Assembly: GCA_964609895.1 (NCBI GenBank)
Contig: CAZSTG010000002.1
Location: 3,362-67,361, forward strand
Reading direction: 5' to 3'
DNA from: an uncultured Gammaproteobacteria bacterium
GTDB taxonomy: Bacteria > Patescibacteriota > Microgenomatia > UBA10105 > UBA927
DNA length: 64,000 bases
Part shown: positions 8,031-48,966 of the stretch, in pieces
Layout of the letters: each line of letters opens with the position of its first letter
Numbering within the stretch: position 1 is the first letter of the stretch
Program-made: the position numbers and the translations under genes
Notes under the pieces: model-generated
What the model was told of the DNA's origin: nothing
Seen by the model: the letters and a program-made list of their open reading frames with translations, nothing else
The model's database searches: none

Positions 8031-8085
8031 GGAGAGGGTCTGACCCTCGCGCGAAGCTAATTTTTCGAGGGTCAGACCCTCTCCA
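8031..8085. repeat. REP doublet (BIME-like): GGAGAGGGTCTGACCCTC - spacer gcgcgaagctaattttt - GAGGGTCAGACCCTCTCC
   Basis: Two inverted copies of the 15-nt palindrome GAGGGTC(A/T)GACCCTC are present. The same element recurs about 10 times in the window. Confidence 0.85.
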
Positions 8086-8091
8086 AGGAGT

Positions 8092-8577
8092 TTAGGAAGC
8101 TTTTGCTTTGCCTTGCCATTCAAGCTTGACGTCTTCATTAACGACTTGTTCTGCCAGTTTGACTGCAGCGTCATAGTTGCCGACGCGTATATAACTGGCG
8201 ACCATATCACTTGCTTTGTTTGCTATATTCTTTTCGTAACTTTGTGCGTAGGGCAGAACGATGGGGGAAAGCTCCGCACAGCTGTCATCCAGTTTGAAAA
8301 TAGCCTTGTAGAGCTGTTCCCAGTTCATACCGGGTTGCAATAGTTCGAGGGTCACTTGCGAGATCTGCTGGCCTCGTGCTTCGGTCATGGTGCCCGCAGC
8401 AACACTCTGTTTGATGAGTTCCACCACTGCAAGTTCTATTTCTTCTCGTACATCATCGGGAGACATATATTCAGTATGAAGTATTTGCAACATGGTAGCA
8501 AGTATAGCGGTTGATTTTACTATAGGGCTTATAGCATACTCCGAACATCTCGTTTTTCCTTTGTTGTCGTGCGACAA
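8092..8577 (-). CDS. Hypothetical protein
   Basis: ORF with no recognisable motif. The real start may be an internal Met. Confidence 0.45.
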   Translation of the reverse strand: MSHDNKGKTRCSEYAISPIVKSTAILATMLQILHTEYMSPDDVREEIELAVVELIKQSVAAGTMTEARGQQISQVTLELLQPGMNWEQLYKAIFKLDDSCAELSPIVLPYAQSYEKNIANKASDMVASYIRVGNYDAAVKLAEQVVNEDVKLEWQGKAKAS

Positions 8578-8672
8578 CGTTTTTTAAGGGGAAAAGTGAT
8601 ATTTTGCTCTTTGCCAACGTTTGAGATCATATTGTTTCATTCCGTCTACATTATTAGGGAAGGATTCGTATC

Positions 8673-9074
8673 ATGAAGAAGACAATTAAACAATATGTGT
8701 ACGATTTTGCAACAAAGAAGTTGACTGAGGTAACGCAGGCGCCTTCGTTCATTCCGGCAGATGTCCAAAAGCAAGTAATTGCTGCGGTAGAACAAAGCAA
8801 AGAAAAGCAACTGTTTGTATACTTTTGGAAGAAAAATGAGCGGATGATGGGTGTCTGTCTTACGGGAAAAGAAGTCCCTACTGACATTCTTCCATCAGTT
8901 ATTGAAGATGCCGAATCTAGGCATAGAAGTAGTTCTATAACCACCGATTTGCTGTCTGTCTTGTTGGAACTGGAACTCGTTTCTTCCTTGGCTGGGCTTC
9001 TGCAGGAATTTGAACCTGATTGCGCTACGTGCAAAAGCATCACGTGTCGAAAAAGCCCTATGTACAAGAAATAG
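8673..9074 (+). CDS. Hypothetical protein
   Basis: ORF divergent from 8092..8577. A C-terminal CATCKSITC cysteine cluster is present. Confidence 0.4.
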   Translation: MKKTIKQYVYDFATKKLTEVTQAPSFIPADVQKQVIAAVEQSKEKQLFVYFWKKNERMMGVCLTGKEVPTDILPSVIEDAESRHRSSSITTDLLSVLLELELVSSLAGLLQEFEPDCATCKSITCRKSPMYKK

Positions 9075-9218
9075 ATTTGTCTCAAACAATGTATTCTGTT
9101 GATTTTTGATCTCCCGTCTTGGCAAAGACAAACCAGTATGTATATTGGTAGATTTTTTATTGGTTTTGACCACGCCGCTTGCGAGAAGCAATTTTTGCAA
9201 AGGCGTGGTTATTTTTTT

Positions 9219-9273
9219 GGGAGAGGGTCAGACCCTCTCTTTTTTGAAGCTACGCGAGGGTCAGACCCTCTCC
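9219..9273. repeat. REP doublet (spacer tcttttttgaagctacgcga)
   Basis: Same palindrome pair as at 8031 but with the type-B spacer. Confidence 0.85.
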
Positions 9274-9319
9274 AAGGGTTCTTTCATCATCTGTGCGTAT
9301 ACGGTATACTAAGATTCTT

Positions 9320-10606
9320 ATGACAAACCTCGCATATGAAAAAACAGTGTTTCCCAACGGTGTACGACTCCTCTGTATTCCCATTTTGGGCGTTGAGAGC
9401 ATGGCAACATCGGTCATGGTAGGTGTGGGAAGCAGGTACGAAACAAAAGATATCAATGGTATTTCTCATTTTCTTGAACATATGGTGTTTAAAGGGACGC
9501 AAAAATTCCCGACGACTGATGATGTGAATTTCATTGAACGTTTAGGTGGCCTCCAAAACGCCTACACAGACCTCGATGTGACGTGCTACCACAATAAAGT
9601 ATTAGGTGAGGATTGGAAATCGGGGCTCGAGATAAACAAAGAACTTGCCTTGTATCCACGACTTGAAGAGCAATATGTGGACAAGGAACGAAACGTGATT
9701 TTAGAGGAAATGAAAAAGTATGAGGATGAACCGGCGATGAAAGTCGGAGAGCTCTTTCATACGATGCTCTATCCTGATACGCAACTTGGCATGCGAATTA
9801 TTGGAGAAGAGGCACCACTTCGGGCTGCCACCGCACAAACACTCAAAACATATCATGATGCATGGTACCAGCCGGAACGCATGGTGGTTGTGATGGCGGG
9901 GAAGTTGCCGGACGAATTGAAAACGGCGTGTAAGGAGGCTGTTGCTTCATGGTTTGGGGAAATCCCAGCAAAAAAGACAGGAGACATTGAACGGGTTGTT
10001 GATCATCAAAATGCACCTCGTGTGGCATTTGTTACAAAAAAAGATGCAACACAGGCTCATATTACCTTAGGACTTCGTACATTTAATAGGTATGCAGAGG
10101 ATCGGTTTGCCGCAAATGTCTTTAATTTACTGTTTGGTGTGTCGTTTACATCACGACTGTTCAAAGAAATTAGAGAGAAAAAAGGATTGTGTTACACCAT
10201 CCGTTCTTCGTCTGACACGTTTGAAGATGTTGGGTATTGGTCGATTTATGCAGGGGTTGCAACAGACAAAGTGCAAGAAGCAACTGCGGGAATTATGCAA
10301 GAAATTAAGAAGGTGTATACAGAGGGTGTGACAGATGAGGAAGTAAAGATCGCGATCAAACGCCTCAAAACGATGCTTGCGTTTCGTGCAGAGGATCCGG
10401 AGTTTGCAACAGAATGGTACGGTCGGCAGGAACTCTATCACATGCCAATCATGTCACTTACCGACTATATGGAACGCATTGCCAACGTGACAAAAGAAGA
10501 AATTAATGCGATGGTTAAAAAATATTTTGTTGCAACTAATTTGAACTTGGCAGTTGTGTGGAATAGACCGGAAGATACAAGTTTGGTAGAATTATTAAAA
10601 ATTTAA
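9320..10606 (+). CDS. M16-family zinc metallopeptidase (insulinase-like)
   Basis: The HFLEHMVFKGT inverted zinc-binding motif (HxxEH) is present and the length fits an M16B peptidase. Start chosen at MTNLAYE downstream of the REP. Confidence 0.85.
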   Translation: MTNLAYEKTVFPNGVRLLCIPILGVESMATSVMVGVGSRYETKDINGISHFLEHMVFKGTQKFPTTDDVNFIERLGGLQNAYTDLDVTCYHNKVLGEDWKSGLEINKELALYPRLEEQYVDKERNVILEEMKKYEDEPAMKVGELFHTMLYPDTQLGMRIIGEEAPLRAATAQTLKTYHDAWYQPERMVVVMAGKLPDELKTACKEAVASWFGEIPAKKTGDIERVVDHQNAPRVAFVTKKDATQAHITLGLRTFNRYAEDRFAANVFNLLFGVSFTSRLFKEIREKKGLCYTIRSSSDTFEDVGYWSIYAGVATDKVQEATAGIMQEIKKVYTEGVTDEEVKIAIKRLKTMLAFRAEDPEFATEWYGRQELYHMPIMSLTDYMERIANVTKEEINAMVKKYFVATNLNLAVVWNRPEDTSLVELLKI

Positions 10607-10622
10607 CTGAAAAAGGAGTCAT

Positions 10623-11045
10623 ATGATTGAAAAAACAGTCGTGCTTATTAAACCAGATGGAGTATTACAGCACATTACAGGAGAAATCATTAAACGATTT
10701 GAATCTGCAGGGCTTACGGTTGTGGGTCTGAAATACGTACAACTCACGCAAAGTATTCTTGATGTTTGGTACGCCCATCATAAAGAAAAGCCATTTTTCC
10801 CGAGTCTTTGCGAACAGATGATGGCAACACCGGTCGTTGCAATCGTGTTATCCGGTGAAAACGCAGTACATCAGGTATTTGATATCTGCGGCCCGACAGA
10901 TCCAGCAGAAGCTGCTCTTGGTACAATCAGGAAAGATTTTGGTGTGGACAAACCGCATAATGTGGTACACCGTTCAGACAGTGTTGAGGCAGCCGAGAAA
11001 GAAATCGGTCTGATTTTCACTCCGAGCGAGATTTTTGCGCTGTAA
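10623..11045 (+). CDS. ndk: Nucleoside diphosphate kinase
   Basis: LIKPDGV...NVVHRSDS contains the NDK active-site His motif. The ORF is 140 aa. Confidence 0.9.
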   Translation: MIEKTVVLIKPDGVLQHITGEIIKRFESAGLTVVGLKYVQLTQSILDVWYAHHKEKPFFPSLCEQMMATPVVAIVLSGENAVHQVFDICGPTDPAEAALGTIRKDFGVDKPHNVVHRSDSVEAAEKEIGLIFTPSEIFAL

Positions 11046-11104
11046 CGGATGCATATTGCATTATTCCATTATTGATTTATACTCCGTGGGTATAAGGAGT
11101 ATAT

Positions 11105-11464
11105 ATGGGGTCACCAGATAGAGCGCCGGTTTTTCATTTGGCAGAGGCTGTTGTTGATCCGCTTGCGCCTCCAAAATCAGATCAGGAATTGTTGGCGCGG
11201 ATACAAGAAAAACTGCACCCAACCGGAGTTGCTGGTCCTCGAGCATTTAGCGTTTCCTCCTTTGAGCTTGCCGATGATGAGGCAAATCACAATCCGCATA
11301 AATCAGATGAAGAGCGTGTGGTTGATCCGTTATTTCCACCAAAAACAGATAGAGAACTCGAGAGAATCACTGCTTTACAAAATACCACAAGCGAGCAACA
11401 GGTTATAAATGAAGATGAATATCGAGCAGCAGTTGGACTTCCGCCACTTCTTGTCGGTTCCTAA
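11105..11464 (+). CDS. Hypothetical small protein with two internal VVDPLxPPK(S/T)D(Q/R)EL repeats
   Basis: An internal duplication is visible in the translation and in the DNA. Confidence 0.45.
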   Translation: MGSPDRAPVFHLAEAVVDPLAPPKSDQELLARIQEKLHPTGVAGPRAFSVSSFELADDEANHNPHKSDEERVVDPLFPPKTDRELERITALQNTTSEQQVINEDEYRAAVGLPPLLVGS

Positions 11465-11659
11465 CTATCTCGGTTTTTCCTGTTGGCGATGTTGTTTGAG
11501 TACGGGATATTCTTTTTGTGGAGGGAGCACTGGTGGTTTTATTTGTTTTTCTGGCAGCTTTGGTTGTGGTGGCAGTTTTGGTTCATATTCGGCACATGTC
11601 ATACAAAAAGCATACTGGAAGACACCGAGTTTCTGCAAGAGAGAAAAGAAGAAAAGTTA

Positions 11660-12310
11660 TTACTTGATAATCTCTAGCTTCCGGAAAATAGGAAGAATAA
11701 ATTCAAATGGAAGACCGATGACGTTGGTGTAGCTTCCGTCGATTTTCGTAATCAGATCCCACGGTGCTTCGTTGACAGTGTACGCTGCGGCAAACCGCGA
11801 AAAATCATACCGGTTGATATATTGGTCAAGTTCCACAGTCGTCATTTTTCGCATGGTGACTTTGGTTGTTTCAATACCATCCCACATTTTTTTTACCGTA
11901 AGACCATGGAGGTACATCACTTTGACAGCTGTTGTGAAGGTATGTGTTTTTTCCATGAGCTCTTTGATCATGGCCTTTGCCTCTTCTTTTGTGTTGGTTT
12001 TTCCGAATGTCTTTTTGCCTAAAATTGCCATGGAATCGGCAGCGATAATAAGTGACCGGCTGTCGATGGGAACATTGAAAACACGGGGATTTTTCACTAT
12101 TTCTTCTGCTTTGGCGAGCGCCCGTTTTTTGATGGTTTTGGTGGGATCCGGATCAGTAATGGCATCCTCATTGACATTGGAAACCACTGTCCGGAACGGC
12201 AGACCGAGTTTTTCCAACAGCATTTTGCGACCCAGTGACTGGGAGGCCAAAATGATCTGAATTGGTTTTTCCTCTAAGGGAATGTGTTGAGGTTTGAATG
12301 AGAGGTTCAT
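11660..12310 (-). CDS. maf: Maf-like nucleoside triphosphate pyrophosphatase
   Basis: IILASQSLGRKMLLEKLGLPFRTVVSNVNE matches the Maf N-terminal signature (ILAS.S.RR..LL...G..F.V..S..DE). Start trimmed to MNLSF. Confidence 0.75.
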   Translation of the reverse strand: MNLSFKPQHIPLEEKPIQIILASQSLGRKMLLEKLGLPFRTVVSNVNEDAITDPDPTKTIKKRALAKAEEIVKNPRVFNVPIDSRSLIIAADSMAILGKKTFGKTNTKEEAKAMIKELMEKTHTFTTAVKVMYLHGLTVKKMWDGIETTKVTMRKMTTVELDQYINRYDFSRFAAAYTVNEAPWDLITKIDGSYTNVIGLPFEFILPIFRKLEIIK

Positions 12311-12398
12311 AATTCGGGTATTATACCGCAAAAACGACCTCAAAGCTAGGAGGGAAAAGCGAGCTTTACAAGGAGTGGCCTTACGAGGCTAATATTTG

Positions 12399-12471
12399 TC
12401 GGGATGGAGAGACTCGAACTCTCGACCTCTTCGTTCCGAACGAAGCACGCTACCAACTGCGCTACATCCCG
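12399..12471 (-). tRNA. tRNA-Pro (anticodon CGG)
   Basis: The reverse complement folds as a cloverleaf: acceptor CGGGATG/CATCCCG, anticodon stem CTTCG/CGAAG, loop TTCGGAA and T-loop TTCGAGT. Confidence 0.8.
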
Positions 12472-12524
12472 CGTAAATCAATCGTATTGTACGAAACAAT
12501 GAGGTAGAATACAATCAAGAAGTT

Positions 12525-12599
12525 GCCTTCGTAGCTCAATGGATAGAGCAGGCCCGTCCTAAGGGCAAGATAGGGGTTCGATTCCCTTCGAGGGCGCCA
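12525..12599 (+). tRNA. tRNA-Arg (anticodon CCT), CCA encoded
   Basis: GCCTTCGTAGCTCAATGGATAGAGCA... has anticodon loop GTCCTAA, T-arm GGTTCGATTCC and a 3' GCCA end. Confidence 0.8.
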
Positions 12600-12635
12600 C
12601 GTCAAACATGGCTGTCGCGTTCGACGCGACGCACG

Positions 12636-13844
12636 TTACCTGATATTAATTGCGTAGAGATTGGGTAGTGTGGAAGCTGTTGGAATGAGATTTGTTAAAA
12701 TCACCAGTTTGTTTGCACTTGTCCACGGCGCAACAAATGCATCCCAGAACGGTCCTGCGTAGAGCGTTTTTCTGTTTGTCCCGTCATAGTCCATCGCTTC
12801 AATCATATCTTTGGAGACGGTGATAAGATGGCGGGAAGTTGGCATCCATTGGAGATCAAGCGTTGCTGCATCACCGATGAGATAATTCCGATCTTCTTTG
12901 ATATCGTACGTATATATACTATATGGTTTGATATCCCGTACATCTTCTGTCGGATTGGTGCCGATAAGGGGCGGGTCAATAATTTGCGGGATGGTTGCCG
13001 CTGCAGTTGCCGTATATAAAATATTCCGTTCGTCCGGAGAAAATGCGATGATGCTCATGGACTGCGTCGCAATCTCAATCAGTTCTGGTGCGAGGGTAGA
13101 GAGTTTTTCCGTTTCTTTGGTTTTGGCGATCGTTTCCCATTCTTTGATGACGTCGCGTTTGATATACACGGGTTTGGCAAACTCATTGAGCTTATCTGTA
13201 TCAATGAGATAGGAGGCAGTTGTTTTTTGTGCGGTCGGAACATCAATCATGAGCTGTTTATTGTCGGGTGACCATGAAAGAACTGCCTGTGACACATCCA
13301 TTGTTTCGTTTTTCAGAATCTGTTTGGCATCACGGTTGAGTCCCAGTGGCTTGTCCACAAGATCCAAAATCCAAATACCCGCACGCTGCATAATTTGCGC
13401 ACTGTTTGTTGTTTCCAGAATAGGAGGGACGACGTAGGCAAGTTTGGATCCGTCGGGGGAAAGCACGGGGTTGAAGACACCACTTGTTGTAATGGCAGAG
13501 AGGGATGGATTGGTTGGATATAATGTTCCGTTTGCCTGTGCAACGACTTCACCCTGCACACGGATGTATTTTTCCCACGATTGGTAGCCTTCTTTTGCAA
13601 ATGTGATGGTGTACCATCCCGGTTTGACCGTGATAGTGGTGTTGGTTGCCCCGACTTTTTTTCCATCAATGAATATGGATGCGCCGATGGGATCGGAGGT
13701 GGCGCTGATGAGTCCTGTGGAGCCGATGGTTTTTTGTTTGAAGTTGAAGCGATACCCTCTGCCGTATGCGATGACGGCAAGTGACACAACCGCGATGAGA
13801 CAAACAGTAAATATGGAAAGCGCAGTGTTTTTGAATTGAACCAT
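12636..13844 (-). CDS. Membrane-anchored PEGA-domain / TolB-like beta-propeller protein
   Basis: A TM segment follows MVQFKNTALSIF. A PEGA-like segment (IFIDGKKVGATNTTITVKPGWYTITFAKEGYQSW) is followed by repeated SPDGSKLAY / SWSPDNKQL / AFSPDERNILY motifs typical of WD40/TolB propellers. Confidence 0.55.
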   Translation of the reverse strand: MVQFKNTALSIFTVCLIAVVSLAVIAYGRGYRFNFKQKTIGSTGLISATSDPIGASIFIDGKKVGATNTTITVKPGWYTITFAKEGYQSWEKYIRVQGEVVAQANGTLYPTNPSLSAITTSGVFNPVLSPDGSKLAYVVPPILETTNSAQIMQRAGIWILDLVDKPLGLNRDAKQILKNETMDVSQAVLSWSPDNKQLMIDVPTAQKTTASYLIDTDKLNEFAKPVYIKRDVIKEWETIAKTKETEKLSTLAPELIEIATQSMSIIAFSPDERNILYTATAAATIPQIIDPPLIGTNPTEDVRDIKPYSIYTYDIKEDRNYLIGDAATLDLQWMPTSRHLITVSKDMIEAMDYDGTNRKTLYAGPFWDAFVAPWTSANKLVILTNLIPTASTLPNLYAINIR

Positions 13845-13900
13845 AGTGAAATTATGTGGCCGGTATAGGATAGTATACAACGAAAGTATGGTAGAATGAA

Positions 13901-14926: not shown

Positions 14927-14948
14927 TCCTGTTTCGCAGGACAGGTCT

Positions 14949-20829: not shown

Positions 20830-21174
20830 ATGGCGAATACACCTTTTCATGAACATAAATTGTGGCAGGATGCGTATGTTGGTTTGATGGACGTCCATGA
20901 AGCATTTGATAGCCAAAAAGACGGCGACAATGAAGAAATCGCCGAACAAGTGTTGGATAGCGCAACTGATGTCACAGCAAAGATTGCCGATGGGTTGTCA
21001 CGTCTTGATAGACGGTTTGGACGACAAATTTTGATGGATACCATTGGACTCATTGCTGTGGTGAGAACACATCTTGCTGTTGCATGGGGCAGAGGGTTGG
21101 TCGATGATGAGTTGTTCCGTGCACTGGATGGGAAATACGACACCTTAGGCGTCGCACTTCAGAACCTCCGGTAA
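20830..21174 (+). CDS. Hypothetical protein
   Basis: ORF with no motif. A REP element follows immediately. Confidence 0.4.
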   Translation: MANTPFHEHKLWQDAYVGLMDVHEAFDSQKDGDNEEIAEQVLDSATDVTAKIADGLSRLDRRFGRQILMDTIGLIAVVRTHLAVAWGRGLVDDELFRALDGKYDTLGVALQNLR

Positions 21175-21180: not shown

Positions 21181-21234
21181 GGAGAGGGTCTGACCCTCTC
21201 TTTTTTGAAGCTACGCGAGGGTCTGACCCTCTCC
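21181..21234. repeat. REP doublet (type-B spacer)
   Basis: ggagagggtctgaccctctcttttttgaagctacgcgagggtctgaccctctcc. Confidence 0.85.
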
Positions 21235-22882: not shown

Positions 22883-24808
22883 ATGCTGCTTCCTGCCATT
22901 AAAAAACTTTCCAATCGGTTGCGTTTTGATGTTCTCTCGATGACGACTACCGCGGGTAGCGGTCATCCGACTTCATCACTTTCCGCTGTTGAGCTGATGG
23001 CGATGCTGTATTTCAAGTATTTGAGGCTTGATACAGATAATCCGAAAAACCTTTCCAATGACCGTGTTATTTTTTCAAAAGGCCACGCATCGCCGCTTCT
23101 GTATGCACTCTTTCATGTTGCGGGAATTATTTCGGACAAAGAACTTGGCGACTATCGTCAGTTTGGAAGTGTACTAGAAGGACATCCAACGCCACGATTT
23201 CCATTTGCAGATATCGCAACGGGCTCTTTGGGTCAGGGACTTGCGATAGGACTGGGCGAAGCGCTTGCAGGAGCACCGCGCGTGTTTGTGTTGTTAGGTG
23301 ACGGGGAACTGTCAGAAGGCGCCATTTGGGAAGCAGTGATGGCTGCGGGATATCATAAAACACAGAACCTCATTGCACTTGCTGATATTAATGCACTCGA
23401 ACAATCAGGTGGTACGATGGACGCATGGGATACGGAAGCGTATCGCAAACGATTTGAAGCATTTGGATGGGCAGCAATTGTGGTTGATGGCCATGATCTA
23501 AAAATGCTTGATACAGCGTACCAAAAGGCAATTGATTATCGTGGTGGACCAACTATTATTCTTGCCAAAACAAACAAAGGACACGGCATATCGTTTTTAC
23601 AAAATAAACATGGGTGGCATGGGAAAGTGCTTTCCAAGGAACTGCTTGTGAAAGCGCTTGCAGAACTGGGTGATGTCGACACATCATTTGAAGGGATTAT
23701 CAAAAAACCTGAGAGCACCAAAGAACACGCGATGACAAGACGCGATGATGCATTTGTACGGAAGAACACAGTATATGAAAAACCGACAACAACGCGTGAG
23801 GGGTTTGGAAAAGCGCTCGTGCGACTTGGTACGCGGGACACCCACATGATGGTGTTGGATGGAGATTTGGAGAAGTCTACGTACACACAGTTGTTTCATG
23901 AAGCATTTCCGAAACAGTTTTTCGAGTGTCATATTGCAGAACAACTTATGGTTGGTATTGCTGCAGGTATGGCTATTTGTGGGAAGTATCCTGTCATTTC
24001 TTCCTATGGGAGTTTTCTCACACGTGCCTTTGATCAACTCAGAATGGCAGCACTCTCTGGCATGTCCCTGATGGTCAATGGATCGCATGGAGGCGTGTCC
24101 GTTGGTCCAGATGGCGCGTCACAAATGGGACTTGAGGATATTGCGTTGTTTCGAACACTGCCAAACTCTATCGTTTTAAGTCCTGCAGATGCGGTATCAG
24201 CCGAAAAACTGACCGAATGTATTTATGGGTATGACGGCATTGCCTATATCAGAACAACCCGTCCGAATCTGCCGATACTATATGACGGGAAAACGGAATT
24301 TGCAATCGGCGGCAGTCACGTGTTTACAGAAACAAACATGCACCGTGCTGGAAATAAAACTGGCAGTTCCACCAAGCCCGTCACTTCGCTTCCCACAAAA
24401 TCAAAGCTTAGCTTTGAAAAGATTGTGACGATTATCGCAACGGGTGTGACCGTACATGAAGCACTGAAAGCACAAAAAGAATTAGAAGCCAGCGGCACGC
24501 CAACACGCGTCATTGATTGTTATAGCATCAAACCGATTGATGCGCAAGCAATTCGAAATGCGGCGGCTGTATCCAAACAACTGATTATTGTGGAGGATCA
24601 TTATCCTGAAGGCGGGTTAGGCGAGGCAGTATTTACCGCACTTTCAGGCACAAATTCGGAGAGGGTCAGACCCTCGCAGGGTCAGACCCTCCAGATGAAT
24701 AGTACGCATTTAGCCGTGTATAAACAGCCGATGTCGGGAACTGCGGAAGAACTGCTCCGATATGAAGAGATTGATGCAACGGCAATAATTAGGAATGCGA
24801 TAGTATAA
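22883..24808 (+). CDS. tkt: Transketolase (full length, TPP-, Pyr- and C-terminal domains)
   Basis: SGHPTSSLS...FSKGHASPLLYA...GSLGQGL...VLLGDGELSEGAIWEA is the TPP-binding N-domain. HIAEQLMVGIAAGMA is the Pyr domain and GGLGEAV the C-domain. A REP element lies in frame near the 3' end. Confidence 0.9.
   Translation: MLLPAIKKLSNRLRFDVLSMTTTAGSGHPTSSLSAVELMAMLYFKYLRLDTDNPKNLSNDRVIFSKGHASPLLYALFHVAGIISDKELGDYRQFGSVLEGHPTPRFPFADIATGSLGQGLAIGLGEALAGAPRVFVLLGDGELSEGAIWEAVMAAGYHKTQNLIALADINALEQSGGTMDAWDTEAYRKRFEAFGWAAIVVDGHDLKMLDTAYQKAIDYRGGPTIILAKTNKGHGISFLQNKHGWHGKVLSKELLVKALAELGDVDTSFEGIIKKPESTKEHAMTRRDDAFVRKNTVYEKPTTTREGFGKALVRLGTRDTHMMVLDGDLEKSTYTQLFHEAFPKQFFECHIAEQLMVGIAAGMAICGKYPVISSYGSFLTRAFDQLRMAALSGMSLMVNGSHGGVSVGPDGASQMGLEDIALFRTLPNSIVLSPADAVSAEKLTECIYGYDGIAYIRTTRPNLPILYDGKTEFAIGGSHVFTETNMHRAGNKTGSSTKPVTSLPTKSKLSFEKIVTIIATGVTVHEALKAQKELEASGTPTRVIDCYSIKPIDAQAIRNAAAVSKQLIIVEDHYPEGGLGEAVFTALSGTNSERVRPSQGQTLQMNSTHLAVYKQPMSGTAEELLRYEEIDATAIIRNAIV
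24658..24692. repeat. Truncated REP pair inserted in frame within transketolase C-terminal domain
   Basis: ggagagggtcagaccctcgcagggtcagaccctcc is translated as SERVRPSQGQTLQ in the tkt frame. Confidence 0.8.
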
Positions 24809-35510: not shown

Positions 35511-35512
35511 AA

Positions 35513-40934: not shown

Positions 40935-40985
40935 CGAGGGTCTGACCCTCTCTTTTTTGAAGCTACGCGAGGGTCTGACCCTCGC
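40935..40985. repeat. REP doublet (type-B spacer), preceded by degenerate gaagctagatcaaagctagc
   Basis: cgagggtctgaccctctcttttttgaagctacgcgagggtctgaccctcgc. Confidence 0.85.
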
Positions 40986-40993
40986 AAAGGGGA

Positions 40994-42845: not shown

Positions 42846-43787
42846 ATGAACAATATTTTGGTGACAGGAGCGTTCGGACAGATTGGCAGTGAGCTGGTGC
42901 CAGCATTGCAGAAAAAATTTGGTGTGGAGCATGTGGTGGCAATCGGGCATCACAACATTCCAAAAGATTTCAAAGGCATTGTGGAAATTGCGGACGTCAG
43001 TGAGGGAGAAAAACTGGAAGCCATCATCAAAAAATATTCCATTGATACGGTCTACCATCTTGTGTCGCTTCTTTCCGCCAAAGGGGAAGTGGATCCGTTG
43101 TTGACGTGGCAGGTGAACATGGGTGGGCTAAAAACTATTTTGGATTTGGGAGTGAAGTACAAACTGCAAATATTTTGGCCAAGTTCCATTGCAGCATTCG
43201 GCCCCACGACACCGCGGGTTGAAACTCCGCAGCGGACAGTATTGGAACCAACCACGATGTACGGAGTGACCAAAGTTGCGGGAGAACTCATGGTTTCCTA
43301 CTACCATAAAAAATATGGGCTTGATGTTCGGTCTATCCGGTACCCAGGACTTATCAGTTTTAAAACACCCCCAGGTGGCGGCACGACGGATTATGCGGTG
43401 GCCATCTTTTATGATGGGCTGCAAAAAGGAACATATGAATGTTTTGTCCGTCCGGATACGACACTTCCCATGATGTATATGGATGATGCGGTTAGAGGAA
43501 CGATGGAACTCATGGATGCAGACCCGACGAAACTGACCGTGACGACGAGCTACAATTTTGCGGCCATCAGTTTTACAGCGGAAGAATTAGCTAGGGAAAT
43601 CCAAAAACATATAAAAGTCGAAGTAACCTATGCGCCGGATGCACGTCAGGCAATCGCTGACAGCTGGCCGCAGTCCATTGACGATGGAGCCGCACGGACA
43701 GACTGGGGATGGAAGCATGAATTTACGCTTTCAAAAATGACAACAGTGATGATTGCGGAACTACAAAAGAAGTTTGGAATGGTCTGA
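42846..43787 (+). CDS. NAD-dependent epimerase/dehydratase-fold L-threonine 3-dehydrogenase-like enzyme
   Basis: MNNILVTGAFGQIGSEL is the Rossmann GxxGxxG motif. The ORF is 313 aa with a YxxxK catalytic region and lies in an operon with kbl. Confidence 0.75.
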   Translation: MNNILVTGAFGQIGSELVPALQKKFGVEHVVAIGHHNIPKDFKGIVEIADVSEGEKLEAIIKKYSIDTVYHLVSLLSAKGEVDPLLTWQVNMGGLKTILDLGVKYKLQIFWPSSIAAFGPTTPRVETPQRTVLEPTTMYGVTKVAGELMVSYYHKKYGLDVRSIRYPGLISFKTPPGGGTTDYAVAIFYDGLQKGTYECFVRPDTTLPMMYMDDAVRGTMELMDADPTKLTVTTSYNFAAISFTAEELAREIQKHIKVEVTYAPDARQAIADSWPQSIDDGAARTDWGWKHEFTLSKMTTVMIAELQKKFGMV

Positions 43788-43788
43788 T

Positions 43789-44139
43789 ATGCAATATATT
43801 TTTACGAAAGATCAATCGCCGAAGTTTGAAAAACACGGTGTTTCCATGTGGCAACTCGGCGGTACCCTTGAACAACCTGAAAAAATAATCTATCAGGAAA
43901 CGATGAAGGGGCATGACGAAGAATTTCTCAATACGACAAGCACATTCAAATATTTTATTTTGGAAGGGAACGGCGAATTTATCATCTCCGGTCAGTCGTA
44001 TCCGGTTTTTGCAGGAAATGTCGTGATCATTCCGCCCAAGACCCCGTTTTATTACAAAGGGAATTTGAAGCAAATCCTTGTCACTGCACCAAGTTGGAAA
44101 GAAGGAACAGATGTACATATTAAAGATAGTATTTTATAG
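43789..44139 (+). CDS. Cupin-domain protein
   Basis: [30 protein letters not shown] is a cupin beta-barrel motif pattern. Confidence 0.5.
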
Positions 44140-44150
44140 AAAGGACAGAT

Positions 44151-45362
44151 ATGACAGATCCACTGCAACCGTTTTATGATCAGATTGAGACGATGAAAGA
44201 GAAGGGGCTCTATAGCACCATCCGTACGGTAGAGTCGCCGCAGGGCGCATGGCTCGCGGTGAACGGGAAAAAGGTTTTGAATTTCTGTTCCAATAATTAT
44301 CTTGGGCTTGCCGCGCATCCCAAAGTTCGAGCAGCAGCAACTAGTGCAATTAAAAAATACGGGGTCGGGCCCGGAGCAGTGCGTACATTATCGGGAACCA
44401 ATGTACTCCATTTGGCTCTTGAGGAGGAAATGGCGAAATTTAAGAAATGTGAAGCGGCACTTGTGGTGCAGGGAGGGTTTATCGCTAACATCATTGCTAT
44501 CCAGACCATCATGGGAAAAGAGGATATCGTGATTTCCGATGAACTCAATCATGCATCCATCATCGACGCGGTGAAAATTGCGCAGATTCAAAACAAGTTT
44601 ATTTATAAACACAACGACATGACGGATCTCGAAAAGAAGCTGCAGGAGATCCAGACATTGGCAGCAACCCCGAGGGCTGACGGATCAAAACGGCTGGTTT
44701 TGATCGTCACGGATGGCGTCTTTTCCATGGACGGCGATATTGCGCCGCTTCCTGATATCGTGCGTCTTGCCAAGAAATACGGCGCAATTACTATGACGGA
44801 TGATGCGCATGGTGAGGGAGTTTTGAGCAGCCATGGTCGGGGAATTGTGGATTATTTCCATTTGCACGGACAGGTGGATATTGAGGTAGGAACATTTTCC
44901 AAAGCGCTCGGCGTTTTGGGCGGTGTGATTGCGGGAAAGAAGGAACTCATTGAATACTACCGTCAAAAGGCGCGTCCATTTGCCTTTTCCACGGGACTGA
45001 CTGTTCCTGATACCGCAGCGCTCATTGCGGGAATAAAATTGCTTGAAAGTTCAGATACATTGGTGAAAAAAGTATGGGCAAACGGGAATTATCTGAAAAA
45101 GGAATTTCAAAAGCTCGGATTTGATACCGGCGTGTCAGAAACACCGATTACACCCGTGATGATTGGTGATGAAAATCTTGCTAAGACGTTCAGCGCAAAG
45201 CTTTTTGAACACAATGTGTTTGCAACGCCAATTAAGTTTCCGATGGTGGCTCTTGGCAAAGCACGCATCCGTGTGATGCCGTCAGCTTCTCACACAAAAA
45301 AGGATTTGGACTTTGGTATTGCCGCATTTCAAACGGTCGGCAAAGAACTTGGGATTATCTAA
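44151..45362 (+). CDS. kbl: 2-amino-3-ketobutyrate CoA ligase (glycine C-acetyltransferase)
   Basis: The protein belongs to the PLP-dependent AOS family: [11 protein letters not shown]...DDAHGEG...[12 protein letters not shown] with the PLP-binding Lys. Confidence 0.9.
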
Positions 45363-45366
45363 CAAT

Positions 45367-45419
45367 GGAGAGGGTCAGACCCTCTCCTGAAGCTAATTTT
45401 TCAAGGGTCAGACCCTCGC
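45367..45419. repeat. REP doublet (type-A spacer) filling kbl/hydrolase intergenic gap
   Basis: ggagagggtcagaccctctcctgaagctaatttttcaagggtcagaccctcgc. Confidence 0.85.
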
Positions 45420-45424
45420 AGGCT

Positions 45425-46426
45425 ATGAAACGATGGATGATTGTGTCTCTTATTCTGTGCGGCGTGATCGCCAGCGGCTTGGTGGGATGGTTTCTCTTTT
45501 CCAAAGAACGGCCCGTCCTTGTCAGTCCACTCAGTGGTATTCGGGAAAAGCCGCTTGAAAAATATTCCATACCGCGGTTGCGTATGAGACAATTTGTGCC
45601 GTCCACAATTGTGTTGGGTGAGCCGATAGCGACAGCGAGCGCATATACCGTGCACCCGTTTTCGTTTGTCAGTGATGGAAAAAAAGTGACGGGAATTGCC
45701 CATATACCAACGTCAACAAATCCTGAAAGAAAATTTCCTGTGATTGTACAATTGCGCGGGTATGTAGGTCGGGAAATATATACGGCGGGGATGGGAACAA
45801 CGCATAGCGCGGAAGTATATGCATCAAACGGGTATATTTCTCTGGCGCCTGATTTTTTAGGATATGGTGAATCTGATATGCCATCAACAAGCCCTATTGA
45901 AGAACGATTGGAAACGTATACGACCGCGTTAACACTTCTTGCATCTGTTCCGACCTTGCCATATGCCGATTTGACCCATATTGGATTGTGGGGACACAGT
46001 AACGGCGGACAGATAGCACTCACACTGCTTACGATTCTTGGTGATCGTGCAGTGCCAACGGTGGTATGGGCACCGGTGACGAAACCGTTTCCATATAATA
46101 TTTTGTACTATACAGATGAATTTGATGATCGGGGAAAGGCACTCAGGAAAGTGGTTGCGGATTTTGAGGCGGAGTATGACGCGGATGTGTATTCCATGAC
46201 ACAATATCTTGACGGGATTGCCGTCCCCATACAGCTTTCTCAGGGGACACGCGATGATGCGGTTCCTGTCGCGTGGAGCGATACGTTTGTAAAAACACTG
46301 GAAGAGAAGGAAAAAGACATTACGTATTTCACATACTCCGGCGCGGATCACAATTTAGCGGGGGGTGATGCATGGAATACGGCGATGACGCGCGATATGC
46401 AATTTTTCAAGAATGCATGGAAGTAG
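45425..46426 (+). CDS. Membrane-anchored alpha/beta-hydrolase (S9/dienelactone-hydrolase-like)
   Basis: An N-terminal TM and the IGLWGHSNGGQIAL nucleophile elbow (GxSxG) are present. Start trimmed to MKRWM downstream of the REP. Confidence 0.7.
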   Translation: MKRWMIVSLILCGVIASGLVGWFLFSKERPVLVSPLSGIREKPLEKYSIPRLRMRQFVPSTIVLGEPIATASAYTVHPFSFVSDGKKVTGIAHIPTSTNPERKFPVIVQLRGYVGREIYTAGMGTTHSAEVYASNGYISLAPDFLGYGESDMPSTSPIEERLETYTTALTLLASVPTLPYADLTHIGLWGHSNGGQIALTLLTILGDRAVPTVVWAPVTKPFPYNILYYTDEFDDRGKALRKVVADFEAEYDADVYSMTQYLDGIAVPIQLSQGTRDDAVPVAWSDTFVKTLEEKEKDITYFTYSGADHNLAGGDAWNTAMTRDMQFFKNAWK

Positions 46427-46435
46427 CCGTAAGGA

Positions 46436-46486
46436 AAGGGTCTGACCCTCTCCTTTTTGAAGCTACGCGAGGGTCAGACCCTCTCC
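46436..46486. repeat. REP doublet (type-B spacer)
   Basis: aagggtctgaccctctcctttttgaagctacgcgagggtcagaccctctcc. Confidence 0.85.
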
Positions 46487-46494
46487 AACAAAAA

Positions 46495-46521
46495 ACACGG
46501 AGGCGTGCCCCGTGTTTTTTT
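46495..46521. terminator. Bidirectional rho-independent terminator (ACACGG-aggcgtgcc-CCGTGT + T6)
   Basis: A hairpin with flanking A-run and T-run sits between convergent genes. Confidence 0.65.
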
Positions 46522-46542
46522 AGTTTTATATTTTTATTTCGT

Positions 46543-47049
46543 TTACGGTAGGGTCATCGTGCCGGCTGTACAGGACGCTGATGCTCCCTGATCGTCCGTC
46601 ACCATCGTTTTCATGGTGACTGCCGCGCCTTTGATGAGTTCTACTGCCTTGGTGGTGCATTGATATGTCTGTCCGCCGCGTTCGTCAGCCGGTTTTAATA
46701 CGGCATTTGTCTCTGATGTTGCAAGTATTTTTCCGTCCGCATTTGCTGTGACCGTAAATGTACAGGTGATGCTTTTGGTTGTCAGCAGTGCAGAGCCTTC
46801 TGCAGATAAGTAGTATTTTGGAAATCCGATCATCGGATTGTACCATTGCTTATCGCAGGAGAGCTTGGTAATCATGGTTTTTTCTTCTACGACCGGTGGG
46901 GTTGTACTGGTTGTTTCCGCAGGTGCAGCTTTTGGTTTTGGCCACAAAAGTACTCCCGCAACGATAACGGCAACTACGATGATAGCGCCGATGATATATA
47001 CGCTTGAGGTTTCACCCTCTTGATGTGTGTTCTGGGTTTCGTTTTCCAT
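46543..47049 (-). CDS. Hypothetical membrane-anchored protein
   Basis: N-terminal TM (VYIIGAIIVVAVIVAGVLLW). Confidence 0.45.
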   Translation of the reverse strand: MENETQNTHQEGETSSVYIIGAIIVVAVIVAGVLLWPKPKAAPAETTSTTPPVVEEKTMITKLSCDKQWYNPMIGFPKYYLSAEGSALLTTKSITCTFTVTANADGKILATSETNAVLKPADERGGQTYQCTTKAVELIKGAAVTMKTMVTDDQGASASCTAGTMTLP

Positions 47050-47106
47050 ATGTAGATACTATATATATAAATGAAGTTATTTTGCAAGAGGCGAGAGGAT
47101 TTGTTG

Positions 47107-47178
47107 AGCCGAGACGGGGATTCGGACCCCGGACCTACTGTTTACAAAACAGTTGCTCTACCACTGAGCTATCTCGGC
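47107..47178 (-). tRNA. tRNA-Thr (anticodon TGT)
   Basis: The reverse complement reads GCCGAGATAGCTCAGTGGTAGAGCA ACTGT-TTTGTAA-ACAGT ...GGGGTCCGAATCCCC. Confidence 0.8.
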
Positions 47179-47209
47179 AAGCAGTGTTGGTGTTTGATAC
47201 GCTCATGAG

Positions 47210-47294
47210 TGTCAGGACCAGGATTCGAACCTGGGTAGCCCGTTAAGGCGACAGTTTTACAGACTGTTGCGATTGTCCACTCTGCCATCCTGAC
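47210..47294 (-). tRNA. tRNA-Tyr (anticodon GTA), long variable arm
   Basis: The reverse complement has acceptor GTCAGGA/TCCTGAC, anticodon stem-loop ACAGT-CTGTAAA-ACTGT, a long variable arm and T-arm CCAGGTTCGAATCCTGG. Confidence 0.75.
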
Positions 47295-47501
47295 AATATG
47301 TGACAGTTGTCATTATATCGTAAACAAACGCTGCTTTCCATGACGTTTTTATGTGTGTAAATAAACTTGACAACGGGATTGATTTATTTTACGCTTACTA
47401 GTGCTCGGAAGGGATTTTTGTAAAGTTATTTTTTCTCTACAAATTTCTCATCAATGAGGTTCGCATCTGTTAATTTTTATCAGATGCTACAGGACCACAG
47501 T

Positions 47502-47526
47502 ATTGTGTACCCGAGGGTACACAATC
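47502..47526. promoter_or_regulatory. Perfect inverted repeat ATTGTGTACCC-gag-GGGTACACAAT upstream of arsR (candidate operator)
   Basis: An 11-bp perfect palindrome arm sits roughly 105 bp upstream of the ArsR start. Confidence 0.35.
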
Positions 47527-47631
47527 AGTCCTACCAATTAGTTCTAGACGGGAAAAACCTTTACAAACCCTTCGAGCGGAATTATTTTCTTCTCTTTCTT
47601 TCTGTTGTCGTTTTCGTGATACGATAGAGCT

Positions 47632-47955
47632 ATGCTTACCGGCGTGAGACTCAAGGAAAAATCGAGAATGTTTGAAAAAAAGATGCGGGGGCCTGCACAT
47701 ACGATCAGGCTTTCCATTATCTATCTTCTGGCACACGGCGAGCTGTCGCTGCATGAAATCGTTTTGGATATTGATAAACCGCAGAATCTTGTGTCGCATC
47801 ATATGAAAATTTTGGAAAAAAGCGGATGGGTGACAAAACGATCAGAAGGCAGGGAGGTCTATTATCATCTGATTGACCGAGGTTTTTTTGAACTGCACCG
47901 GATGCTTGTTGATACGCCGTTTTATCACACGAAACTGATGAAACGGTTGAAATAG
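47632..47955 (+). CDS. ArsR/SmtB-family transcriptional regulator
   Basis: IRLSIIYLLAHGELSLHEIVLDIDKPQNLVSHHMKILEKSGWV is the wHTH ArsR signature. Confidence 0.7.
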   Translation: MLTGVRLKEKSRMFEKKMRGPAHTIRLSIIYLLAHGELSLHEIVLDIDKPQNLVSHHMKILEKSGWVTKRSEGREVYYHLIDRGFFELHRMLVDTPFYHTKLMKRLK

Positions 47956-47958
47956 CAT

Positions 47959-47979
47959 GGAGAGGGTCAGACCCTCTCC
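47959..47979. repeat. Single REP palindrome GGAGAGGGTCAGACCCTCTCC between arsR stop and RAYT stop
   Basis: A 21-nt near-perfect palindrome. Confidence 0.85.
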
Positions 47980-48645
47980 TTATTCTTCATTGTCGAGAAG
48001 ATACGCGTCCATCGTCCATTCGACTTTTTTCTGTGCTTCGTCGGTGTCTTCGACAAATGATTTGTAAGACGTAAATGTTTGTTGTGATGGGATATTGGAA
48101 CTAAATGATGAAAGAATAATATGCGGATTGACCCATGAAATATTTTTGAGTCCTAGATATTGTGCATAAGATGAATGTGCTGTTACTAAATCAACACCGA
48201 GTTTTATGGGATTTCTATGAATGTATCGTGATATATGGAGGAAATATGCATCATCATCAATCAAAATTGCTTTGTAAACGCTTTCAAATAGTGCGCCGAT
48301 ACGTCGGTATTTTTTATTGAAATACATGGAATATCTTGTGCACACAGATTTGAGAAATGTATGCAGGGAATGTTCATCTTGCTGTTGTATCAGGAAATGA
48401 AAGTGATTGGGCATGAGGCAATAGGCCAGCATGGTGATGGTATCGGAAAAATTTTGGACAGGATCTTTTATGTGTGGACCAATCATTGCCGTCGGGATTT
48501 CTTTTTTCAGCGCCTCTTTAAGTATGTTGAGAAACCGCAGGTAATCTGATTCCTCGAGGAAAATATTCCGTTTCTCCACACCGCGATTGTAGACGTGGTA
48601 TATCCCGTCTAATACAAAAAGTCTTTTTGTATTTTTTCTGGGCAT
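47980..48645 (-). CDS. REP-associated tyrosine transposase (RAYT; IS200/IS605-like Y1 HUH transposase)
   Basis: The N-terminal GIYHVYNRGVEKRNIF, the HUH motif (MPNHFHFLIQ) and the C-terminal catalytic-Tyr motif SRYIHRNPIKLGV (YxxxNP) are present. The gene is flanked on both sides by the inverted REP palindromes. Confidence 0.8.
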   Translation of the reverse strand: MPRKNTKRLFVLDGIYHVYNRGVEKRNIFLEESDYLRFLNILKEALKKEIPTAMIGPHIKDPVQNFSDTITMLAYCLMPNHFHFLIQQQDEHSLHTFLKSVCTRYSMYFNKKYRRIGALFESVYKAILIDDDAYFLHISRYIHRNPIKLGVDLVTAHSSYAQYLGLKNISWVNPHIILSSFSSNIPSQQTFTSYKSFVEDTDEAQKKVEWTMDAYLLDNEE

Positions 48646-48672
48646 TATGTTCACTATATCACAGAATAGATT

Positions 48673-48726
48673 GGAGAGGGTCAGACCCTCTCTTGAAGCT
48701 AATTTTGCGAGGGTCAGACCCTCTCT
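48673..48726. repeat. REP doublet (type-A spacer) upstream of RAYT
   Basis: ggagagggtcagaccctctcttgaagctaattttgcgagggtcagaccctctct. Confidence 0.85.
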
Positions 48727-48875
48727 GGGGAGAATTGCTACTTGACGAAGTTTTATATTTTCTTTCATACTATATAGGTTCGTATGTATTCTGCCCGAAG
48801 ACAGTGCTATGAACTTTAATTATTTCAATAGTGCATATACGGCAACCACAGTTGCCGGATATTCTTTTCTTTTTT

Positions 48876-48900
48876 AAAGACCCGTACGGGTCTTTTTTTG
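48876..48900. terminator. Bidirectional terminator (aaAGACCCGtacGGGTCTttttttt)
   Basis: A hairpin with flanking A- and T-runs. Confidence 0.6.
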
Positions 48901-48913
48901 AGGAAGTATATTA

Positions 48914-48966
48914 GGAGAGGGTCAGACCCTCGCCTAGCTTCAAAAAAGAGAGGGTCAGACCCTCGC
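48914..48966. repeat. REP doublet, inverted orientation (spacer gcctagcttcaaaaaagaga)
   Basis: ggagagggtcagaccctcgcctagcttcaaaaaagagagggtcagaccctcgc. Confidence 0.85.

Follow-up and report, generated by a model that had tools for sequence, protein, structure and literature searches.

A probable REP-RAYT system in a genome of the Microgenomates group of the Candidate Phyla Radiation

The locus and its genomic setting

A 64-kb stretch of contig CAZSTG010000002.1 from an uncultured bacterium (hereafter, the window) carries a family of short, GC-rich palindromes and, flanked by them, a gene for a protein related to the transposases that are associated with repetitive extragenic palindromes (REPs), known as REP-associated tyrosine transposases (RAYTs). 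The RAYT-like gene (47980..48645, minus strand) encodes a 221-aa protein of the Y1/HUH type; its convergently transcribed neighbor (47632..47955, plus strand) encodes a regulator of the ArsR/SmtB family. For the source genome, all counts of repeats and RAYT genes given here refer to the 64-kb window.

The host belongs to the Microgenomates group of the Candidate Phyla Radiation (CPR; Patescibacteria). The ArsR protein falls in the same 90%-identity cluster as a protein labeled "Microgenomates group bacterium", and the nearest named homologs of the RAYT and of a transketolase encoded in the window come from Candidatus Gottesmanbacteria and Curtissbacteria. The segment between 37.9 and 58.3 kb is syntenic, at 77-88% nucleotide identity, with contig JBAQFJ010000001.1 (GCA_049287205.1; hereafter JBAQFJ), a 1.02-Mb sequence from a metagenome-assembled genome (MAG) of a Microgenomates group bacterium from which two stretches, L005 and L059, were compared with the window. 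The GC content of the window is about 44%, and the GC skew is positive throughout, so that the whole window probably lies on one replichore.

Sequence and architecture of the repeats

The 15-nt palindrome GAGGGTCWGACCCTC is present in the window in 16 exact copies, and in 19 copies if one mismatch is allowed, compared to 0.00 copies in dinucleotide-preserving shuffles and an overall chance expectation of 0 to 0.6. The 13-nt core, AGGGTCWGACCCT, is perfect in all 19 copies, and a search for this core relaxed to two mismatches yielded no additional or decayed copies in the window. Many copies lengthen to the 21-nt palindrome GGAGAGGGTCWGACCCTCTCC, and the family is built on one GC-rich hairpin unit, (GGA)GAGGGTC-W-GACCCTC(TCC). 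Short GC-rich palindromes in many copies, here 19 in 64 kb, are what defines REPs.

An initial examination of the DNA alone, without database searches (hereafter, the sequence-only reading), listed ten loci, all of which carry the palindrome, far above the shuffled expectation. It described them as at least 10 doublets with a spacer of roughly 20 nt. This description holds for eight of the ten (8034, 9223, 21184, 40936, 45370, 46436, 48676 and 48917), with 18 nt between the palindromes in every case (33-nt pitch), whereas the locus at 24661 is a tight tandem and the one at 47962 is a singlet. Doublets with fixed spacing thus outnumber singlets, as in REPINs (REP doublets that form hairpins).

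As the same reading proposed, the spacers form two discrete classes. Type A, NNNN-GAAGCTA-ATTTT(T/G)C, is found on the plus strand at 8031..8084 (GCGCGAAGCTAATTTTTC; palindromes 8034-8048 with T and 8067-8081 with A at the center, and GGA/TCC outer flanks), at 45367..45417, between the kbl stop codon (45362) and the start of a hydrolase gene, where the second palindrome begins with AAGGG, and at 48673..48725 (spacer TCTTGAAGCTAATTTTGC), preceding the RAYT start codon by 30 nt. Type B, TC(T/C)TTTTT-GAAGCTA-CGC, also on the plus strand, is found at 9220..9273 (TCTTTTTTGAAGCTACGC), upstream of an M16 peptidase gene; at 21181..21234, beginning 10 nt past the stop codon of an open reading frame (ORF; 20830-21174) and upstream of rpiB; at 40936..40983, where the orthologous singlet in L005 adjoins the gene for ribosomal protein L33; and at 46433..46486, beginning 10 nt past the hydrolase stop codon, where the first palindrome begins with AAGGG. 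The doublet at 48914..48964 lies on the minus strand, as part of an insertion of 69 nt that is flanked by direct repeats of GAGGAA; its spacer is the reverse complement of type B with one substitution (CTAGGC), in line with the earlier suggestion that the element occurs in both orientations. The singlet (47959..47979, strandless) is a 21-nt perfect palindrome, GGAGAGGGTCAGACCCTCTCC, with the 15-mer at 47962-47976, and separates the convergent ArsR and RAYT genes, lying 3 nt downstream of the RAYT stop codon. Finally, the tight tandem (24658..24691, plus strand; palindromes 24661-24691) has a 1-nt gap and lies in frame within the transketolase gene. Two of the intergenic arrangements singled out in the sequence-only reading, namely kbl stop, REP and hydrolase, and ArsR stop, REP and RAYT stop, are accurate.

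Three further singlets (2109, 3517 and 6143) were observed in a relative, on the JGI contig Ga0172375_10000514 (L087). Downstream of each there is a conserved tail with the pattern TTGAG(A/G)...AAA..TTTAACCTATAG; the two copies that are most alike share the version TTGAGGCTAAACTTTTAACCTATAG, similar to the type-A spacer (TGAAGCTAATTTTT), so the REP unit may comprise the hairpin plus a 3' tail.

When folded as single-stranded DNA, all eight doublets adopt one long hairpin as the minimum-free-energy structure, with the first palindrome pairing with the second (stem 15-19 bp, loop 16-18 nt, dG of -14 to -23.6 kcal/mol, z of -3.7 to -6.8); the doublet at 8031..8084 forms a single 19-bp hairpin with a dG of -23.6 and a z of -6.8, and the 47959..47979 singlet folds into a hairpin with a dG of -9.5. 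The sequence-only reading described the doublets as inverted pairs, but each 15-mer is its own reverse complement, with only the center base being asymmetric, so that orientation within a doublet is undecidable except by that base. The center bases are T,A in the doublets 8034 and 46436, A,A in four others and T,T in the remaining two. Over the copies from all fetched loci, the center is A in 74, T in 67 and C in one; with A or T in this position in 141 of the 142 copies, the pattern fits flip-flop inversion of the palindrome better than point mutation.

Nine of the ten loci are intergenic, as expected of REPs and as the sequence-only reading stated for most of them, the transketolase tandem (24658-24691) being the exception. 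Of the nine elements that can be oriented, eight point the same way, and the GC skew of the window is uniformly positive; the sample is small, yet this fits strand-specific, replication-coupled targeting of single-stranded DNA. The same reading assigned seven of its ten loci to the interval from 40.9 to 49.0 kb and described an 8-kb hotspot around the RAYT gene. The actual number is six, and the scan-statistic p value, 0.018 for six loci in 8.0 kb, rises to 0.25 without the two repeats that flank the RAYT gene, so clustering around this gene is not established. At the Rfam gathering thresholds, only tRNAs and an L10 leader were detected in the window, with the repeats unmatched.

The repeats are no assembly artifact, a concern raised from the outset. 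Two Logan contigs assembled independently from SRR8925774 (L001 and L002; L001 is 99.96% identical to the window) carry the copies at 40936 (partial), 45370, 47962, 48676 and 48917, the doublet at 45370 being found in L001 and the one at 48676 in L002. Both contigs start inside a repeat, as expected of short-read assemblies, which break at repeats.

The RAYT-like protein

The ORF that contains the RAYT gene (47980-48768, minus strand) opens with a translated REP doublet. The actual start is the ATG at 48645, and the protein begins with MPRKNTKRLF. In public gene calls, the protein is recorded with 262 aa (P0001), the first 41 residues being the translated doublet, and an exact look-up of the 221-aa sequence returned no match because these calls use the extended ORF. 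Similarly, the hydrolase ORF (45365-46426) is called from an ATG inside the 45370 doublet (L001 gene 4412-4678). The sequence-only reading dismissed all peptides translated from the repeats as artifacts; this is correct for the N-terminal extension of the RAYT (EGLTLAKLASREGLTLS) and for the hydrolase start at 45365 but not for the copy in the transketolase gene. In practical terms, public gene calls carry REP-derived artifacts, and short-read contigs break at these repeats.

The identification of the repeat-flanked gene as RAYT-like, already made in the sequence-only reading, is borne out by several lines of evidence. The protein matches the Pfam family Y1_Tnp (PF01797) with an E-value of 5.4e-9 and contains the HUH motif H81-F-H83 and a putative catalytic tyrosine, Y141, within RYIHRNP. 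In an alignment of 30 homologs, the motifs YH(I/V)YNRG, CLMPNHFH (HUH) and SRYIHRNP (Tyr) are invariant or nearly so, and H81-F-H83 and Y141 are invariant. An AlphaFold2 model of the protein (mean predicted local distance difference test score, pLDDT, of 83.7) was compared to the PDB using Foldseek; the best match of the predicted structure is 4ER8, the complex of the E. coli RAYT with a REP (E-value 4.6e-6, TM score 0.68 on the target), followed by the TnpA proteins of ISDra2, IS608 and IS200.

The gene is present in one copy in the window and is not bordered by ends of the insertion sequence (IS) type. Synteny of the locus extends to another relative, L003, where the RAYT protein is 75% identical and the ArsR gene is likewise the neighbor; in a more distant genome (L091, GCA_043798445.1, with a protein named Candidatus Gottesmanbacteria), the RAYT is about 50% identical and lies in the same neighborhood. 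There, it adjoins the same small RNA-like element and large downstream protein-coding gene, with the ArsR gene about 6 kb away. Because of this synteny with ArsR in L003 and the shared neighborhood in L091, the RAYT gene appears to have been passed on vertically, keeping a fixed position with its own REPs on either side.

Presence and absence of repeats among relatives

Comparison across relatives, which the sequence-only reading recommended, revealed polymorphism of individual copies. JBAQFJ lacks the block 47955-48756, that is, the entire REP-RAYT-REP segment of about 800 bp, in place of which there are about 29 bp that include a CCCTCT remnant, and the matches to the RAYT protein include no close ortholog from this contig. 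All five sites that could be compared (8034, 9223, 40936, 45370 and 46436) are doublets in the window and singlets in JBAQFJ, which is one repeat-plus-spacer unit shorter at each. The exact 18-mer GGAGAGGGTCWGACCCTC occurs four times in the 1.02 Mb of JBAQFJ versus 14 times in the 64-kb window, a density per kb that is about 56-fold lower in the former. JBAQFJ is thus a natural knock-out: the repeats are sharply depleted in a relative that has no RAYT at this locus.

Other relatives show different combinations. The ortholog of the 8034 doublet is a type-A doublet with an identical spacer in L086, a locus of the JGI contig Ga0172375_10000043, and a singlet in L059. By comparison, the 9223 ortholog is a singlet in both L086 and L059, the 40936 doublet differs from its L005 ortholog by one repeat-plus-spacer unit, the 45370 ortholog in L005 is a singlet, and the orthologs of 46436 are singlets in both L005 and L003. 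The doublet at 21184 is found with the same spacer in L083/L084, also from Ga0172375_10000043, and the site is empty in two further relatives (L085 and L089). Because Ga0172375_10000043 keeps the same type-A and type-B doublets, both loop types predate the split between the species. The 48917 doublet is a clean and recent 69-nt insertion at a site that is empty in L005 and L003. Together, 48917 and 21184 demonstrate insertion or excision polymorphism between relatives. Parsimony was tried as a guide to the direction of the change between singlets and doublets and was not decisive, the three genomes being nearly equidistant (77-88% identity); the M16 gene alone suggests that the window and Ga0172375 are sisters.

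Co-variation of the RAYT and the repeats across lineages

At each of the four loci of CPR RAYT homologs that were examined, the gene is accompanied by cognate palindromes, which lie on both sides in L003, L091 and L092 (GCA_030647775.1, with a protein named Candidatus Curtissbacteria). In L003, the palindrome is CAGGGTCWGACCCTG, in tight tandems on both sides of a gene that occupies the same position beside ArsR; in L091, it is TGTCAGGGTGWCACCCTGACA, and the gene is inverted; in L092 (RAYT about 48% identical), it is TAGGGTCSGACCCTA, with additional copies inside the ORF; and in L093 (also about 48%), it is AAGGTGCCACCTT, upstream of the gene and in one copy inside the ORF. The stem differences between the lineages are compensatory on both arms, which supports the possibility that the hairpin is read as a structure and co-evolves with its enzyme.

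In L092, the palindromes inside the RAYT ORF are in frame, at 10159-10171 (around aa 53, DTGSDPK) and 10428-10442 (around aa 143, KIGSDPK); the copy in L093 (1512-1524) corresponds to about aa 69, and the 3' tandem of L003 (3068-3098) is translated as the C-terminal GSDPVRVRPS of the RAYT. Many RAYT homologs contain palindrome-like peptides (LQGSTLQ, TFKGVTFKG) in the same variable, low-pLDDT loop; the window RAYT has no such copies within its ORF. On a speculative reading, the in-frame hairpins of CPR could be cis elements, involved, for example, in autoregulation, or a source of variation in protein loops.

Similar hairpins were encountered outside the CPR. In the actinobacterium AC_21 (L031), a gene for a RAYT homolog that is 23% identical is followed by two GGGTCWGACCC palindromes, found only downstream. 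In the UBP4 bacterium UBA6127, GGAGAGGGTCWGACCCTCTCC is the center of a hairpin of about 45 nt, aCGGAGttgTAACGGAGAGGGTCWGACCCTCTCCGTTAcaaCTCCGt, that is present in 13 copies (L009, L012, L018, L026, L032, L034, L038, L041, L062, L064, L072, L074 and L077). In the Acidimicrobiales MAG-156 (65% GC), the core takes the form TAAGGAGAGGGTCWGACCCTCTCCTTA (L011, L020, L024, L028 and L061). Taken together, Microgenomates (including the Curtissbacteria MAG), UBP4 (UBA6127), Acidimicrobiales and the actinobacterial RAYT locus raise the speculative and, in our assessment, rather doubtful possibility that one widespread RAYT clade uses essentially a single hairpin, GGGTC-N-GACCC, across very distant phyla. 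If this were true, REP-RAYT systems would pass from one phylum to another, with CPR episymbionts and the organisms they live on as possible partners.

An in-frame repeat in the transketolase gene

The only repeat in the window located within a gene is the tandem in the transketolase gene (22883..24808, plus strand; NCBIfam NF004559, 761 bits, aa 6-638). The sequence TCG GAG AGG GTC AGA CCC TCG CAG GGT CAG ACC CTC CAG encodes S592-Q604, SERVRPSQGQTLQ, and when the protein is aligned to human transketolase, it is 12 aa longer at this point, which falls in a C-terminal domain loop. The six closest homologs (78-81% identity) all read (E/D)RVRPS-LQ, which corresponds to a single in-frame copy (ERVRPS or DRVRPS), so that the in-frame hairpin is found in seven related sequences, those of the window and the six homologs. 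The DNA of two of the homologs contains the single in-frame copy GGAGAGGGTCAGACCCTCTC (L083/L084 from about 11729; L085 from about 11169), and the repeat in the window is 12 nt, or four codons, longer. Thus, a REP has persisted in frame in the gene for a housekeeping enzyme in several species and appears to have been partly duplicated in the window genome, with the reading frame remaining intact; the tandem form was seen in the NCBI assembly alone, the protein (P0122) having no counterpart among the Logan contigs.

In the 68%-identity clade represented by L089, the loop is of similar length and has no palindrome, and no recurrent palindrome was found in 21.9 kb of this sequence. The idea that the L089 loop is an older, decayed repeat was therefore rejected, given that there is no palindrome there.

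Relationship to known systems

The arrangement resembles the REPIN-RAYT systems of Pseudomonas and Enterobacteria (Bertels & Rainey 2011, PMC3116915; Bertels et al. 2017, PMC5581495), in which short GC-rich palindromes are mostly paired at a constant distance and each pair folds into one long single-stranded DNA hairpin (PMC3116915). The repeat-flanked RAYT gene that is apparently vertically inherited at a fixed locus, and the sparse complement, mostly of singlets, in a relative without a RAYT at the locus, are further points of similarity. In contrast to these systems, to which there is no relationship in sequence, the host is a member of the Microgenomates (CPR), with a 1.02-Mb contig standing for its closest syntenic relative; the window RAYT is only distantly related, scoring below the NCBIfam cut-off and having no PDB sequence match; every REP, 15-21 nt long, is perfectly palindromic around one central base, so that the orientation of the doublet is undefined; the loops belong to two discrete, conserved classes instead of being variable spacers; and one copy lies in frame in a housekeeping gene.

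The E. coli TnpA-REP enzyme (YafM; 4ER8, PMC3479197), which binds the REP hairpin, shares with the window RAYT the Y1 HUH fold, as far as the model indicates; the latter is extended at its C-terminus by about 70 aa of helical structure that the 165-aa E. coli chain lacks. The sequence-only reading called the repeats BIME-like, after the bacterial interspersed mosaic elements (BIMEs) of E. coli. Those elements are mosaics of Y and Z REPs to which IHF or gyrase binds. The term fits the architecture, with REPs joined by defined linkers, here of two classes, into composites at the 3' ends of genes, but not the sequence: there is no evident likeness to the Y and Z REPs or to the linker motifs, and no GTAG adjacent to the stem. 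The GTAG- and CGTC-tagged REP super-families (Di Nocera et al. 2013, PMC3733652) are likewise high-copy palindromes, of 20-40 nt, that are accompanied by a RAYT; unlike them, the window repeats have no defining terminal tag.

Compared to IS200/IS605 elements (IS608, ISDra2), which encode enzymes of the same superfamily and rely on hairpin-guided, replication-strand-biased single-stranded DNA chemistry, the window RAYT has no IS ends, occurs once in the window and is syntenic across species, and the repeats are non-coding units of 50 nt rather than gene copies. Rickettsia palindromic elements (RPEs) are reported to occur in frame in protein-coding genes (Ogata et al. 2000). They resemble the transketolase repeat in being palindromic, in frame, located in a surface loop of a conserved enzyme and retained across species; they differ in having no sequence relationship to it, in the size of the insert (4-13 aa here versus roughly 30-50 aa) and in that the window repeats have a candidate mobilizing enzyme alongside.

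A literature search identified no paper in the library searched that links RAYTs or REPs with CPR in this sense or prints the motif. In passages of Bertels et al. 2017 (PMC5581495), abundant flanking repeats are attributed only to RAYT Groups 2 and 3, and CPR are not among the hosts in those passages; Quentin et al. 2018 contains no mention of CPR. A scan of 185,579 GTDB species genomes, a collection that does not include the source genome, produced 0 matches to the doublet, and a scan of JGI metagenomes produced only three stretches, all from one sample; therefore, doublets of the exact palindrome are rare outside the lineage of the window. Two matches on a single viral contig in IMG/VR, in unrelated sequence with 55% GC, look like chance. 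It appears that we are dealing with a known kind of system in a lineage for which no published description was found, with in-frame coding copies and a hairpin core that recurs across phyla as additional features.

Interpretation and alternative explanations

We consider it likely that the palindromes are non-autonomous repeats of the REP/REPIN type and that the RAYT, the only one in the window, is their cognate enzyme. By analogy with TnpA-REP and IS200/IS605, the RAYT would recognize the hairpin on single-stranded DNA at the replication fork and would cleave and rejoin DNA beside it, as IS200/IS605 TnpA and the E. coli TnpA-REP do. Such reactions could add, remove and homogenize repeat-plus-spacer units and seed new copies. 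The existence of the repeat family, its architecture, its adjacency to the RAYT gene, the motifs of the protein, the polymorphism and the co-variation are directly supported, and the predicted fold is that of the Y1 enzymes; that the RAYT acts catalytically on the repeats, that it does so via single-stranded DNA and which way singlets and doublets change into each other are parts of a model.

Several observations weigh against this interpretation. The RAYT scores 47.1 bits against the NCBIfam equivalog model NF047646 (REP_Tyr_transpos), well short of the cut-off of 80, and a sequence search of the PDB with this protein produced no match at E <= 0.01; because of these two results, the protein would be placed in a distant clade rather than with the proteobacterial equivalog, as only far kin of the characterized E. 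coli enzyme. Judged by the center base, six of the eight doublets are direct, not inverted. No GTAG or CGTC tag was found beside the hairpins, the flanks being GGA/TCC, CGC, CAC and similar; GTAG occurs only on the minus strand within type-B spacers, 2 nt and 12 nt from the two palindromes, and is absent from type A. The 6-bp direct repeat GAGGAA at the 48917 insertion is not a product of the IS200/IS605 type. Finally, the stems are unchanged at the five orthologous sites even in JBAQFJ, which has no RAYT at the locus, with the 40-nt flanks being 73% identical, which suggests either that a host function keeps the stems under selection or that the JBAQFJ genome has another RAYT elsewhere.

The last observation is also an argument for viewing the hairpins mainly as host-function elements maintained by selection, such as mRNA 3'-end stabilizers, terminators or protein-binding sites, with the RAYT being incidental. 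Six of the nine intergenic loci lie no more than about 11 nt downstream of a stop codon; the complete (100%) conservation of the stems at five sites between less conserved flanks extends to the one compared genome that has no RAYT at the syntenic site; and the first hairpin of the type-B doublets is followed by a T-run and was flagged as terminator-like. We nevertheless regard this explanation as unlikely. Only two of the five type-B elements are oriented so as to terminate a co-directional upstream gene, a canonical terminator follows at 46436 in any case, and type A has no T-run after the hairpin; a general role of the repeats as intrinsic terminators was rejected on these grounds, the T-run being confined to the type-B first hairpins, of which two of five are properly placed and oriented. 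Moreover, a host function leaves unexplained the flanking of the RAYT by repeats of co-varying sequence in every CPR lineage examined, the lineage-specific 69-nt insertion and the approximately 56-fold gap in density relative to the RAYT-less relative. As an added, co-opted role, a host function is compatible with a REP-RAYT system.

Two other scenarios appear less probable still. The doublets could be miniature inverted-repeat transposable elements (MITEs) moved by a DDE transposase encoded elsewhere, in which case the palindromes would be terminal inverted repeats and GAGGAA a target-site duplication. The 48917 insertion, bounded by this 6-bp repeat and carrying a few extra bases outside the palindromes, and the outer GGAGAGGGTC...GACCCTCTCC ends, which resemble terminal inverted repeats, are what such an origin would produce, but this is a single case: the sites that differ between singlet and doublet have no flanking duplication and differ by one repeat-plus-spacer unit, no DDE transposase was identified in the window, where the sole transposase-like gene identified is the repeat-flanked Y1 RAYT, and RAYT homologs elsewhere carry cognate palindromes. 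It is similarly improbable that there is no transposition at all, the copies being ancient and vertically inherited and the forms interconverting by replication slippage or recombination between identical palindromes. Differences of one repeat-plus-spacer unit at five orthologous sites are expected from slippage between 15-nt direct repeats, the 12-nt difference between the transketolase tandem and the single copy is of the same kind, and an A or T center in 141 of 142 copies fits palindrome flip-flop; slippage, however, is unable to place the same 18-nt spacer at unlinked loci or to give rise to the 69-nt insertion, which two relatives lack at the corresponding site, and it leaves the flanking of the RAYT and its co-variation with the repeats unexplained. 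A CRISPR array, which would have three or more repeats with unique spacers, was also considered and rejected: the repeats number at most two per locus, different loci share spacers and there are no cas genes among the ORFs examined.

A REP-RAYT system in this group would be of interest for several reasons. REP/REPIN-RAYT systems have been studied almost only in Proteobacteria. Non-coding DNA is expected to be under pressure in a tiny, streamlined genome, and the persistence of repeats there needs to be explained. The related metagenome assemblies, with the RAYT present or deleted, singlets or doublets and a recent insertion, constitute a natural experiment that could test the dependence of the REPs on the RAYT.

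Other features of the window

Near the repeats, the window and JBAQFJ also differ in gene content. An extra gene for a protein of about 116 aa (43753-44139), with a weak Cupin_2 match in L001, is present in the window, compared with JBAQFJ, just upstream of kbl. Conversely, at 47091-47104, the window lacks a gene for a 224-aa protein similar to 2-phosphosulfolactate phosphatase that both JBAQFJ and L003 carry upstream of ArsR.

A segment of 108 bp (8511-8618 in the window, 5800-5907 in L059) is 96% identical between the two genomes, with the surroundings at about 78%, and its order relative to the neighboring segments differs; it may be a small RNA or a highly conserved peptide-coding segment. 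The interval that separates the RAYT gene from the next gene contains a non-coding element, also conserved and about 150 nt long (48757-48905, plus strand). It is present in four related genomes (in L005 at 10352-10498, in L003 at about 2040-2290 on the reverse strand, and in L091 at about 10900-11050, in addition to the window) and is about 85% identical between genomes in which coding DNA is about 78% identical. Rfam produced only sub-threshold matches to this element. A promoter-like sequence, TTGACG-18-CATACT, starts at 48742, and the element, which looks like a small RNA gene or a leader, ends in a strong terminator hairpin, AAAGACCCGTACGGGTCTTTTTTT, just upstream of the 48914 doublet.

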